Positions 44,758 to 50,742 of a stretch of DNA of 64,000 bases are shown one piece after another. The DNA is from Octopus vulgaris (taxonomy: Eukaryota). The notes beneath the pieces were generated by a model, which saw only the letters and a program-made list of their open reading frames with translations, did not search any database and had not been told where the DNA came from. Made by a program: the position numbers and the translations under genes. The stretch lies in the NCBI GenBank assembly GCA_951406725.2, contig OX597818.1, positions 81,778,001 through 81,842,000 on the forward strand, written 5' to 3'. Within the stretch, counting starts at the first letter, position 1; every line of letters starts with the position of its first letter.

Positions 44758-44918
44758 TGTCTTGCTTCTCTCCTTGTTTTTTTCTGTGTCCCTTTCTGTA
44801 GATGAGCGTAGGCTCGAAACGTAAAATATTTTTTCTATTCCTGAGCGTTATACTAATACATCTGTTTGTTTTGTACACCACCTGTCTTAGTCTTTTGTTT
44901 TTTTCGTAAACTCTCCCT
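44758..44918 (+). mobile_element. pLTR-like repeat with a variant minimal HHR (second copy)
   Basis: Near-identical to 29037-29170; also ends in a TA tract. Confidence 0.6.
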
Positions 44919-45099
44919 ATATATATATATATATATATATATATATATATATATATACATATATAAATATATATATATATATGTATATATACACACACAC
45001 ACACACACACACATATATATAAATATATATATATATATATATATATATATATGAGTGTGTGTATGTGTTAAATATAATGGGAGTACAAAACCATATAAA

Positions 45100-45520
45100 G
45101 AGAAAGTTAGTCTTATATCTGTTCCTGGGATATTAGGGATATCACTTCATCGTAGATTATGTGAGATGGTTAAATGGAGGGACATATTAGAGTTCAATAT
45201 AAGGAGTTATTTTCGAAAAGGAACGAAAGAAGGCGTATGTAGGGATGTAAGAGAATGAATGTTGAAATAAAAATAAAAAAATATATAAAGAGGTTATAGT
45301 TGAGTTAAAACTGTGATGTTGTTGATAGAGCATGTTCTTTGTCTATCTACTTATCCCCTTTGTGGTTTTGGATAATAAGAAAACTATACAAATGAATCCT
45401 TCAAATTGAACTAAATTCTATATTTTATGCAGCTGAAGATTGCTCTACATTTCAAATTGATGGAATCGCATGAAAAGATCGTACTGCATTACCTGGATAT
45501 CCTTGTTGCTTATTTTGATT
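45100..45520 (+). mobile_element. Naiad-like PLE 3' end plus pLTR with HHR
   Basis: RLCEM.KW..ILEF...KRNE..GVCR remnant (C.LC..EK...LN.R.E...C.H type); HHR at 45427-45489 ATGCAG-CTGAAGA..GAAA-AGATCG-TA-CTGCAT, homologous to 11143-11233. Confidence 0.65.
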
Positions 45521-45789
45521 ATATATATATATATATATATATAAAATTAATTAAGGGTAGAAATTGATATTTATCAATTAAGACCAGTGGTCTAGCATAT
45601 TAAAAAAGAATCCGAAGATTAAAATATTTATATATACCAATTAAGGACTGAACACGAAAAGTGGACAGTCAACATGCTAGATATAGACGTCAAATCGTCA
45701 TTCTCCACAAAAGATTATGTTCTCAGATCAAACTCAACACAAAACCATAGCAATAAACAAGTGAAAAATATACGAAATAAAATAATTAC

Positions 45790-45854
45790 CCATGTACTAA
45801 CTTAGTTTCAGCTGTTATTTTCCGCAAGGAAAACTGCAGCCATCATCAGCATGG
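45790..45854 (-). ncRNA. Type I HHR, array A copy 1
   Basis: CCATG-CTGATGA-TGGCTG..TTTTCC-TTGC-GGAAAA..CAGCT-GAAA-CTAAGTTAG-TA-CATGG. Confidence 0.88.
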
Positions 45855-46320
45855 TCCGTTATAAATGTAATTTGCTGGACTAAATGCAAACACGATACCG
45901 AAATATCGCGCGCATGGAGTTCAGCCTATTACATTTGAATATATCTTTCAAATGCCTTTACTTTGGCGCGTTGAGACCCGAGAAAACTAGCCTGCAGCTA
46001 ATAATTAGCAGCAGTTAATTTATCGGTTAGAGAACATTTATTTATATAAAATTAATTAAGGGTAGAAATTGATATTTATCATTAAGGGTAGAAATTGATA
46101 TTTATCAATTAAGACCAGTGGTCTAGCATATTAAAAAAGAATCCTAAGATTAAAATATTTATATATACCAATTAAGGACTGAACACGAAAAGTGGACAGT
46201 CAACATGCTAGATATAGACGTCAAATCGTCATTCTCCACAAAAGATTATGTTCTCAGATCAAACTCAACACAAAACCATAGCAATAAACAAGTGAAAAAT
46301 ATACGAAATAAAATAATTAC

Positions 46321-46385
46321 CCATGTACTAACTTAGTTTCAGCTGTTATTTTCCGCAAGGAAAACTGCAGCCATCATCAGCATGG
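46321..46385 (-). ncRNA. Type I HHR, array A copy 2
   Basis: Identical to copy 1. Confidence 0.88.
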
Positions 46386-47058: not shown

Positions 47059-47228
47059 GTAATTATTTTATTTCGTATATTTTTCACTTGTTTATTGCTA
47101 TGGTTTTGTGTTGAGTTTGATCTGAGAACATAATCTTTTGTGGAGAATGACGATTTGACGTCTATATCTAGCATGTTGACTGTCCACTTTTCGTGTTCAG
47201 TCCTTAATTGGTATATATATATATATAT

Positions 47229-47500
47229 AAATTAGTAAATAAATGGCACAACTAAGTACCGATATTTACTGGAAATAGCGAACGTAAAAATACGACGCTA
47301 ATGTGTAGCTTCACCGCGTATGTATTAGCAAAAATGCGTGTGTGCAACAAATTAGAGAAAAAAAACCGTCTTACCTCCAGGGAGAACATCTGAAAGATAA
47401 AACACCCGCAAAATGATAATGTGGTACCTGCAGGTTTCAGGTTTTACAAGATATGTCTCTCACCCATATTTTGTTTTACCTTCATCAGCCAAACATATGA
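47229..47500 (-). mobile_element. Third HHR-bearing unit (single, 5'-truncated) between arrays A and B
   Basis: TA-flanked, with its 3' end at the left TA tract; terminal hairpin GGTAC..GTGCC resembles GGTGC..GTACC at 11326-11345. Confidence 0.65.
47421..47492 (-). ncRNA. Type I HHR
   Basis: TGG-CTGATGA-AGGT...ACCT-GAAA-CCTGCAGG (palindrome)-TA-CCA. Confidence 0.8.
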
Positions 47501-47807
47501 TATATATTTGTATGTATATATATAATTAATTAATAAGGGTGAGAGAATTAGATACTAATTTAATAGTATATTTATTCCACACCAAGTGGCCTAGTGCTAC
47601 GAGAAACCTGGATTATTATAATATTTTATAACATATTACAATATTTTCACAAAATAAATATAAGAGAGTGTTCACTATATTGATCACTCTAGCACCAGTT
47701 AATCCAAGAGGTTTCAACCACGAAAAATACATGTTTCCCATGAAAGCCGGTACGACTGTTAGCTCACACGGACAGGGCAAATAAAAAATAACAAAAATAC
47801 AGATTAT

Positions 47808-47885
47808 CTTGGGACAATTGTTTCGCTATTAATGAATTAAATGTAATATTACTTACAGCAATCCATTTGTAGCTCTTCAGCCAAG
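47808..47885 (-). ncRNA. Type I HHR, array B (further minus-strand copies at 48343-48420 and 48878-48955)
   Basis: CTTGG-CTGAAGA-GCTA...TAGC-GAAA-CAATTG-TC-CCAAG; canonical core with a GUC cleavage triplet. Confidence 0.92.
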
Positions 47886-49297
47886 GCTATCTTGATGAAA
47901 TCCACTCAATCACACGCCAGATTTTACCATAACGATAATTACGCGTGCGGTTCAATTGATTACATCGGACGTTATAATTCAAATGCCCCAACCAACAGCG
48001 CGCCAAACTCTCACGGAAAACAAAATACAGCATTTAGAAATAAATGCAGCATAATTATAATTAATTAATAAGGGTGAGAGAATTAGATACTAATTTAATA
48101 GTATATTTATTCCACACCAAGTGGCCTAGTGCTACGAGAAACCTGGATTATTATAATATTTTATAACATATTACAATATTTTCACAAAATAAATATAAGA
48201 GAGTGTTCACTATATTGATCACTCTAGCACCAGTTAATCCAAGAGGTTTCAACCACGAAAAATACATGTTTCCCATGAAAGCCGGTACGACTGTTAGCTC
48301 ACACGGACAGGGCAAATAAAAAATAACAAAAATACAGATTATCTTGGGACAATTGTTTCGCTATTAATGAATTAAATGTAATATTACTTACAGCAATCCA
48401 TTTGTAGCTCTTCAGCCAAGGCTATCTTGATGAAATCCACTCAATCACACGCCAGATTTTACCATAACGATAATTACGCGTGCGGTTCAATTGATTACAT
48501 CGGACGTTATAATTCAAATGCCCCAACCAACAGCGCGCCAAACTCTCACGGAAAACAAAATACAGCATTTAGAAATAAATGCAGCATAATTATAATTAAT
48601 TAATAAGGGTGAGAGAATTAGATACTAATTTAATAGTATATTTATTCCACACCAAGTGGCCTAGTGCTACGAGAAACCTGGATTATTATAATATTTTATA
48701 ACATATTACAATATTTTCACAAAATAAATATAAGAGAGTGTTCACTATATTGATCACTCTAGCACCAGTTAATCCAAGAGGTTTCAACCACGAAAAATAC
48801 ATGTTTCCCATGAAAGCCGGTACGACTGTTAGCTCACACGGACAGGGCAAATAAAAAATAACAAAAATACAGATTATCTTGGGACAATTGTTTCGCTATT
48901 AATGAATTAAATGTAATATTACTTACAGCAATCCATTTGTAGCTCTTCAGCCAAGGCTATCTTGATGAAATCCACTCAATCACACGCCAGATTTTACCAT
49001 AACGATAATTACGCGTGCGGTTCAATTGATTACATCGGACGTTATAATTCAAATGCCCCAACCAACAGCGCGCCAAACTCTCACGGAAAACAAAATTATT
49101 ATTAATTATAATTATTAATTAATTATAATTATGCTGCATTTATTTCTAAATGCTGTATTTTGTTTTCCGTGAGAGTTTGGCGCGCTGTTGGTTGGGGCAT
49201 TTGAATTATAACGTCCGATGTAATCAATTGAACCGCACGCGTAATTATCGTTATGGTAAAATCTGGCGTGTGATTGAGTGGATTTCATCAAGATAGC

Positions 49298-49375
49298 CTT
49301 GGCTGAAGAGCTACAAATGGATTGCTGTAAGTAATATTACATTTAATTCATTAATAGCGAAACAATTGTCCCAAG
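49298..49375 (+). ncRNA. Type I HHR, array B inverted arm (further copies at 49833-49910 and 50368-50445)
   Basis: CTGAAGA at 49303-49309, GAAA at 49359-49362, palindromic CAATTG, predicted cleavage after GTC at 49370. Confidence 0.92.
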
Positions 49376-50742
49376 ATAATCTGTATTTTTGTTATTTTTT
49401 ATTTGCCCTGTCCGTGTGAGCTAACAGTCGTACCGGCTTTCATGGGAAACATGTATTTTTCGTGGTTGAAACCTCTTGGATTAACTGGTGCTAGAGTGAT
49501 CAATATAGTGAACACTCTCTTATATTTATTTTGTGAAAATATTGTAATATGTTATAAAATATTATAATAATCCAGGTTTCTCGTAGCACTAGGCCACTTG
49601 GTGTGGAATAAATATACTATTAAATTAGTATCTAATTCTCTCACCCTTATTAATTAATTATAATTATGCTGCATTTATTTCTAAATGCTGTATTTTGTTT
49701 TCCGTGAGAGTTTGGCGCGCTGTTGGTTGGGGCATTTGAATTATAACGTCCGATGTAATCAATTGAACCGCACGCGTAATTATCGTTATGGTAAAATCTG
49801 GCGTGTGATTGAGTGGATTTCATCAAGATAGCCTTGGCTGAAGAGCTACAAATGGATTGCTGTAAGTAATATTACATTTAATTCATTAATAGCGAAACAA
49901 TTGTCCCAAGATAATCTGTATTTTTGTTATTTTTTATTTGCCCTGTCCGTGTGAGCTAACAGTCGTACCGGCTTTCATGGGAAACATGTATTTTTCGTGG
50001 TTGAAACCTCTTGGATTAACTGGTGCTAGAGTGATCAATATAGTGAACACTCTCTTATATTTATTTTGTGAAAATATTGTAATATGTTATAAAATATTAT
50101 AATAATCCAGGTTTCTCGTAGCACTAGGCCACTTGGTGTGGAATAAATATACTATTAAATTAGTATCTAATTCTCTCACCCTTATTAATTAATTATAATT
50201 ATGCTGCATTTATTTCTAAATGCTGTATTTTGTTTTCCGTGAGAGTTTGGCGCGCTGTTGGTTGGGGCATTTGAATTATAACGTCCGATGTAATCAATTG
50301 AACCGCACGCGTAATTATCGTTATGGTAAAATCTGGCGTGTGATTGAGTGGATTTCATCAAGATAGCCTTGGCTGAAGAGCTACAAATGGATTGCTGTAA
50401 GTAATATTACATTTAATTCATTAATAGCGAAACAATTGTCCCAAGATAATCTGTATTTTTGTTATTTTTTATTTGCCCTGTCCGTGTGAGCTAACAGTCG
50501 TACCGGCTTTCATGGGAAACATGTATTTTTCGTGGTTGAAACCTCTTGGATTAACTGGTGCTAGAGTGATCAATATAGTGAACACTCTCTTATATTTATT
50601 TTTATTATTATATATATATATATATATATATATATATATATATATATATATATATATATATGTATATATACACACACACACACACACATATATATATATA
50701 TATATATATATATATATATATATATATATATATATATATATA

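Follow-up and report, generated by a model that had tools for sequence, protein, structure and literature searches.

How does a stretch of less than 6 kb come to hold a dozen hammerhead ribozyme motifs, many of them in head-to-head arrays, between tracts of (TA)n? The question is raised by positions 44758-50603 of a 64,000-nucleotide (nt) segment of the Octopus vulgaris genome (contig OX597818.1, positions 81,778,001 to 81,842,000; G000:C5:81778001-81842000), referred to below as the window, in a microsatellite-rich assembly of 2.8 Gb. Judged by its sequence, the stretch appears to be a stack of six multicopy, non-coding, hammerhead-bearing families of Penelope type (non-LTR retrozymes, where LTR denotes a long terminal repeat), denoted U1, U2a, U2b, A, U4 and B (Table 1), which a borrowed Penelope-like enzyme probably put in place in succession. 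A cluster of this kind is known; the new point is a rule of end pairing, i.e., when an insertion consists of two back-to-back arms, one arm ends at a short (S) and the other at a long (L) 3' site. We assign a probability of roughly 0.6 to the view that these palindromic arrays form when both cut strands of the target prime on one RNA.

Genome searches with the window's units returned 745-2986 candidates per query. Families A, B and U4 form tandem units with periods of 505, 535 and 432 nt, respectively, each unit with a type I hammerhead; for U1, U2a and U2b, the only copies seen were truncated ones, single or inverted. A tblastn search of 44758-50603 found no reverse transcriptase (RT) or GIY-YIG similarity.

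Pairing of the 3' ends

The A and B loci analyzed (39 and 38, respectively) are the distinct ones among the 40 best-scored of 1726 candidates for A and of 745 for B, and the phase of each end was counted from the ribozyme cut. The 3' ends fall at two fixed sites, at ~160 (S) or 290 (L) in B and at 166 (S) or 250-257 (L) in A. Two arms are present in 55 of 79 A/B insertions (~70%, the window's included), and all 55 are arranged minus-then-plus. One S and one L end are found in 27/27 of the A and 25/28 of the B insertions; the three exceptional B loci each combine one S end with one non-standard end. One-arm A/B copies end at L (12), S (10) or elsewhere (2). The corresponding ratio for U4 is biased because the U4 query ended at the S site. 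Among the B loci, the entire 6.5-kb contig of L176 (G000:C120) consists of ~12 near-identical B units, and L167 appears to duplicate L185 (G000:C4:160.91-160.93 Mb), with one B insertion and its flank present twice, ~14 kb apart, as a segmental or haplotype duplicate.

The same pairing is seen in U4 (6/6 two-arm insertions; 27 loci), in U2b (3/3; 8 loci inspected for a second arm and partly picked for having a second hit) and in two autonomous families, N1 (2/2; 17 loci) and N2 (10/10). The N2 tally was made from L291, L293-L307 and L308-L327, where L301 and L302 are uncounted as their second-arm ends lie out of view; this family was located by a protein query, which does not select ends. Summed over these six families, S is paired with L in 73 of 76 back-to-back insertions, and the combinations S+S and L+L both have a count of zero. 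We found no published statement of strict end pairing or of twin priming by Penelope-like elements (PLEs), although Arkhipova 2006 or supplementary files may hold one. As a side observation, the L ends of the unrelated families A, B, N1 and N2, and also the U1 end, come after a short run of C and then AT-rich bases, which may be a recognition signal. Elsewhere in the window (31120-31266) a tiny inverted insertion, in which no hammerhead was seen, lies between TA tracts, and at its ends it looks like the L ends of A and B of the CCCTTAATT type.

The autonomous families were found in a search for GIY-YIG families in which 150 of 6136 candidates were scored, and they are the two families examined out of many. 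Both N1 and N2 carry an intact RT and GIY-YIG and insert into TA with the same signature as the window's units. The Pfam RVT_1 match lies just under the cut-off and that of the C-terminal GIY-YIG over it, and the CX2-5CxxC cysteines of the linker are visible; by the motif description in PMC8557442 both would be named Neptune-type. The 4713-nt N1 unit (L276:1748-6460) has a separate upstream open reading frame (ORF1) that overlaps a 765-aa ORF2, followed by tandem CCAAT/TGACGT-like repeats and a tail of ~35 nt. The 4271-nt N2 unit (L315/L316, G000:C1:27.84-27.85 Mb) has an ORF1 and a 775-codon RT-GIY-YIG frame, and this family is very young, with 106 matches at 100% protein identity (source copy included) and with tandem and inverted copies. 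Broken PLE RT and GIY-YIG fragments, 34-59% identical to N1, are found within the window at 29313-30853, 32023-32406 and 63762-63998, the first of which comes after a U1 copy (29047) and a TA tract.

The relation between the two arms was examined at 49 simple two-arm loci (L151, L152, L167, L176, L182, L183 and L188 were excluded). Recurrent single-nucleotide polymorphisms (SNPs) are identical between both arms in 28 of 39 same-locus pairs, compared to 179 of 928 pairs between loci, and eight locus-private SNPs are present in every pass of both arms, through up to 10 passes. The arm lengths are uncorrelated (rho 0.05, n = 49). Most arms (76/98) are longer than one unit, with a maximum of ~ten units, and the ribozyme cut is no more than 10 nt away from the 5' end in just 2 of the 98. 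Among 54 centre joints, 24 are overlaps of 1-6 nt, 7 are blunt, 22 hold inserts of 1-12 nt and one holds a larger insert. Short overlaps or inserts of this kind are the traces that microhomology repair leaves.

Proposed priming from both strands and competing explanations

In vitro, the PLE of an anole initiates reverse transcription internally, at two sites that mark the limits of its tail; this enzyme cleaves and extends both strands of the target and is predicted to be a dimer (PMC11167929). The end sites described above match these start sites, and the two strands of one target may be taken to use two sites of one RNA. In such a scheme, a tandem array would be transcribed and the transcript cut to unit length by the hammerhead, the template being either circular or a multimer left uncut. 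An autonomous PLE would supply a dimeric RT/GIY-YIG protein that holds this RNA with its RT centres at S and L, 35-130 nt apart, and nicks both strands of a TA tract ~14-16 nt apart. One 3' end would then prime at L and the other at S, each copying over an independent distance and often for several turns, whereafter the 3' ends of the complementary DNAs (cDNAs) would be joined by microhomology-type repair to give a head-to-head palindrome. A single productive primer would yield a one-arm copy with either end, and TA would persist on both sides, where it can be hit again. A stricter form, in which a single RNA is bound by one dimer at two fixed positions, one per DNA strand (coupled twin priming), small ribozyme-made RNA circles are copied repeatedly from both centres to give kilobase palindromic arrays within TA microsatellites in a single event, and the "optional tail" of PLEs is the obligatory spacing between the RT centres, is put forward tentatively, at slightly less than even odds.

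A number of observations weigh against priming on one RNA by both strands. The anole study found no difference in start sites between the strands, although the products were pooled (PMC11167929). No canonical hammerhead was found in N1 or N2, and no autonomous partner with DNA similarity was identified among the families examined; N1 and N2 gave no blastn match to the window's units at E<0.05. The common haplotype of the arms shows one source, not one molecule, and the A/B loci are the best-scoring, youngest copies. Variants confined to adjacent passes (L193, L198, L203, L217) point to later duplication or conversion. A 26-nt duplication in array A, present in one of the three left-arm passes and in the only pass of the right arm, is unexplained by a monomer circle, while multimer or fold-back copying would fit. 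Nine of the 49 centres lie within 25 nt of the perfect fold-back phase (P = 0.047). Finally, the joint between U2a and U2b in the window pairs two short ends, though from different families.

The strongest rival keeps the same elements and TA targeting but invokes self-priming or fold-back, where a cDNA serves as its own template and the resulting hairpin is opened by the endonuclease with a staggered cut that flanks the tail. Fold-back was proposed for head-to-head PLE structures in PMC3846280, and PMC8557442 attributes the tail to endonuclease resolution. Such a process predicts one L and one S end as well as a common haplotype, and it would account for the mirror position of the 26-nt duplication in array A and for the slight excess of near-palindromic centres (9/49). 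However, a single hairpin cut gives near-equal arms, while a more than twofold difference in length is observed at 22 of 49 loci and the lengths are uncorrelated; the S arm is the longer one at 19 of 49 loci, and the two arms at L179 measure 192 and 5266 nt. Large one-sided central deletions would be required afterwards. Furthermore, both sites are start sites of the RT on RNA in vitro (PMC11167929). Taken together, we consider fold-back unlikely.

Alternatively, short copies may insert and the arrays grow in place, satellite-like, by unequal crossover and conversion without any rolling-circle copying, as discussed in bioRxiv 10.64898/2026.07.22.740005. Several loci do have variants common to adjacent passes only. 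Private SNPs in every pass of both arms, through up to 10 passes, and arrays of 5-10 units nearly without internal variation (L178, L179, L180) speak against this possibility, which by itself also leaves the end pairing unexplained. In-place growth is improbable as the origin of the arrays, and is likely a secondary process only.

It is very improbable that the TA tracts were made by the elements themselves, either as a telomerase-like added tail or by later slippage. Both end sites are AT-rich, and among 24 one-arm copies TA follows the 3' end more often (20) than the 5' end (14). Nevertheless, 14 of 24 5' flanks with TA is far above the background of 3.9%, impure flanks are duplicated on both sides, and one arm at L193 abuts (CAT)n with no TA. 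That the palindromes are assembly or long-read fold-back artefacts, as arms up to 100% complementary over 1446 nt and garbled segments in some arms (L151, L167) might suggest, is scarcely credible in view of the distinct S and L ends, the target duplications, the non-symmetric centres, an array A joint contained in a contig of run X1, and contigs of four runs that pass the S site into TA.

Priming on one RNA from both strands is thus the reading we prefer. If true, it would provide genomic evidence for several-turn reverse transcription of animal retrozyme RNAs. With the N2 family, the enzyme is at hand together with its templates and numerous natural products, all within a single genome.

Hammerheads, TA tracts and the layout of the cluster

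A descriptor motif scan of 44758-50603 found 12 type I hammerhead or hammerhead-like motifs (cores and strands in Table 1). After dinucleotide shuffling, the window yields 0.1 hits per 64 kb at score 10 and nothing above that score, and 10 of the 12 motifs score 11-14, which bears out the count of 12 in less than 6 kb given in an earlier note on this DNA. Nine of these motifs repeat in tandem within just two insertions (three in A, six in B), and the independent insertions with a recognisable motif are five. The earlier note divided the stretch into five units, each with its own hammerhead and separated only by TA-type repeats; the families number six. The second unit of that note consists of U2a and U2b, which are joined 5'-to-5' via 4 common bases with no TA between them and TA beyond both 3' ends. 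The earlier note could find no hammerhead in the neighbouring non-TA DNA; the rest of the window carries them at +11149 (U2b family), +29047 (U1 family) and +56803, with a weak one at +55902. The observation behind the earlier note is thereby partly confirmed, i.e., real with corrections, and the interpretation that it gave is supported by the data on TA below.

No hammerhead family of Rfam was matched at the gathering score in the window or at E<=10 in 44000-51500, and the only matches were to microsatellite-driven microRNA families; the miss is likely explained by the long helix II loops. The core CUGANGA...GAAA...UH is present in A, B, U4 and U2b, and the canonical core is absent from U1 and from the window's copy of U2a. 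Because CUGUAGA replaces CUGANGA in most U1 relatives, ribozyme activity of U1, whose helix I is 3 base pairs long, is doubtful. CUGUAGA is found in most U1 copies (44796, 29047, L091-L120), and a look-alike of the family with the canonical core is found at L270, L197 and L213. In U2b a helix III pair is broken. Among the relatives of U2a, 7 of 11 loci have a canonical hammerhead at the same place, and the copy in the window has decayed. When folded with the core letters held unpaired, helices I-III all form in A (2.0 kcal/mol above the minimum) and in U4 (4.1 kcal/mol above it). B forms helices I and II at 0.3 kcal/mol above the minimum, which leaves its palindromic helix III for a dimer, and U1 folds helix II alone. 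Minimal PLE hammerheads, opposite-strand pairs among them, have been described (PMC4209133), and 8 of 9 Xenopus elements did not self-cleave (bioRxiv 10.64898/2026.07.22.740005).

The background density was 9 motifs per 200 kb in 20 stretches at round coordinates (shuffled mean 0.4). Five motifs in 5.85 kb give a Poisson P of 8e-6, with ~4 such windows expected genome-wide, and five motifs are far beyond Poisson when the array interiors are removed (~1.2 kb left); therefore, the cluster exceeds uniform chance. The window holds 62 merged TA tracts, most of them without an adjoining motif.

Serial PLE-type insertion into TA is very probable. The test that could have refuted strong (TA)n targeting, as claimed earlier, was run for A and B and left the claim standing: a TA run of at least 10 nt lies within 30 nt of 122 of 133 3' ends, the background in 20 control stretches being 3.9%, and seven other microsatellite types are found at 0-2 of 133 ends. 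TA is present also on the 5' side in 14 of 24 one-arm copies. Flank duplications, for the most part 12-19 nt in a scoring that takes in a few bases of the element, hold C or G at 12 of 76 loci, compared to 2.0 expected from mismatched pairs (L162, L167 and L176 were left out of this test). Because TA is found at 5' flanks and flanks holding C or G are duplicated, the TA tract is the target rather than a tail. Inverted 5'-truncated copies with an optional 3' tail, the PLE-type signature, were found as well, and GIY-YIG enzymes may have mobilised the window's elements, as the earlier note inferred. The re-use of TA flanks is real but modest, with hammerheads 2-3 times denser near A/B insertions: other hammerheads within 1 kb of these insertions number 16 per 151 kb versus 9 per 200 kb at random (P = 0.03), and L164 has three of them within 1.3 kb. 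A special landing-pad property of the locus is unneeded, since TA targeting and re-use suffice. The bias of Neptune and Naiad PLEs toward microsatellites was known before (PMC8557442) and, because of this, the TA pile-up is itself ordinary, an expected consequence of known targeting.

The identity to the best relatives rises from 80-87% (U2a/U2b) through 94-97% (U1) and 97-99% (U4) to 99-100% (A and B), which is consistent with serial arrival in that order. U2a has its own match set at 84-87%, U2b has full-length matches at 80-85%, and the 40 best matches of U1 besides itself are at 94-97%; 22 of 29 U1 relatives end in TA.

Table 1. Features of the TA-rich stretch (window positions)
Feature	Position	Strand	Remarks
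(TA)n then (TG)n tract	44658..44760	none	left flank of cluster
U1, 5'-truncated short multicopy element with minimal hammerhead-like motif	44761..44917	+	core 44796, CUGUAGA; predicted cut after 44823
(TA)/(CA)/(TG) tract	44918..45067	none	
U2a, sixth family	45068..45306	-	3' end at tract; decayed hammerhead ~45110-45157
U2b, old 5'-truncated element	45303..45520	+	damaged hammerhead core 45433; S end at TA
(TA)n	45520..45543	none	flanks array A on the left
Array A left arm, 2.1 units of 505-nt family	45538..46622	-	L 3' end; hammerheads 45849, 46380
Array A right arm, 591 nt	46629..47219	+	S 3' end; hammerhead 46999
Short (TA)n common to 3' ends of A and U4	47212..47229	none	
U4, 270-nt 5'-truncated copy of 432-nt tandem family	47229..47498	-	canonical hammerhead core 47488; S end
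Impure TA spacer	47499..47520	none	flanks array B on the left
Array B left arm, 2.95 units of 535 nt	47521..49096	-	L end; hammerheads 47880, 48415, 48950
Array B right arm, 2.8 units	49101..50602	+	S end; hammerheads 49303, 49838, 50373
(TA)/(CA) tract	50603..50744	none	right flank

The inversion joint of array A is covered without differences by a 63-nt contig from run X1, which may be the assembly's own sample, and the joint is therefore real in at least one run; contigs from four runs (X1, X4, X6, X10) run on from the S site of this array into TA. A, U4 and B are covered by contigs from three putative RNA runs, with one contig spanning the predicted cut site of B; since circle, multimer and DNA are indistinguishable in such contigs, they were not used as evidence. 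In a look for alleles without the insertions, the contigs were found to break off at the TA tracts. The U2a/U2b joint resembles a two-arm insertion built from two different RNAs, with both ends of the short type. Outside the cluster, a local duplication at 51180-51742 comprises ~220 nt plus a microsatellite, with the copies 342 nt apart.

Comparison with known systems

In twin priming of L1, the second target strand primes internally on the RNA, which yields a 5'-to-5' inversion with a microhomology joint; the position of the second site varies, and there is no overlap between the two parts. Here, in contrast, both sites are fixed, each can occur at either flank, and the arms overlap each other many times.

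The window's families are like the non-LTR retrozymes of animals in that they consist of non-coding, low-GC tandem units with a type I hammerhead each, dispersed as monomers to multimers. For these retrozymes (PMC7229834) a circular RNA template and mobilisation by PLEs have been proposed (PMC7229834; bioRxiv 10.64898/2026.07.22.740005), the latter source also treating their PLE origin. The unit size of 432-535 nt is above the ~170-400 nt of PMC7229834 and inside the 51-972 bp of bioRxiv 10.64898/2026.07.22.740005. Unlike in the retrozymes described, 55 of 79 A/B insertions are palindromes of two arms that lie in (TA)n and have paired ends. The words "inverted" and "microsatellite" do not occur in the available main text of PMC7229834, the portion covered of bioRxiv 10.64898/2026.07.22.740005 describes no such palindromic structures, and "ribozyme" does not occur in the available main text of the Octopus vulgaris repeat annotation (PMC13282606).

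A tail at one end of inverted PLE copies has been described qualitatively (PMC8557442, PMC3846280). Compared to the Neptune and Naiad PLEs of these studies, the window's elements encode no protein, the tails are 63-130 nt (U4, A, B) rather than 30-40, the tail is quantified as a near-absolute rule in which one L is paired with one S, and both arms may span several units. The origin of the tandem and inverted structures and the microsatellite bias are listed among the open questions of PLE retrotransposition in PMC8557442.

The closest biochemical parallel is the Poseidon element PAc of Anolis (PMC11167929), with which the window's elements share two tail-delimiting RT starts, AT-rich targets and cutting and extension of both strands, and in which, as here, the ribozyme cut is not the start. 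PAc is autonomous and belongs to a different PLE clade; the study did not connect the pair of sites with the two target strands of a single event and left the steps after initiation unvalidated. The pairing of S and L ends found in six octopus families separates the models for these steps, and it is directly testable in that existing in vitro system.

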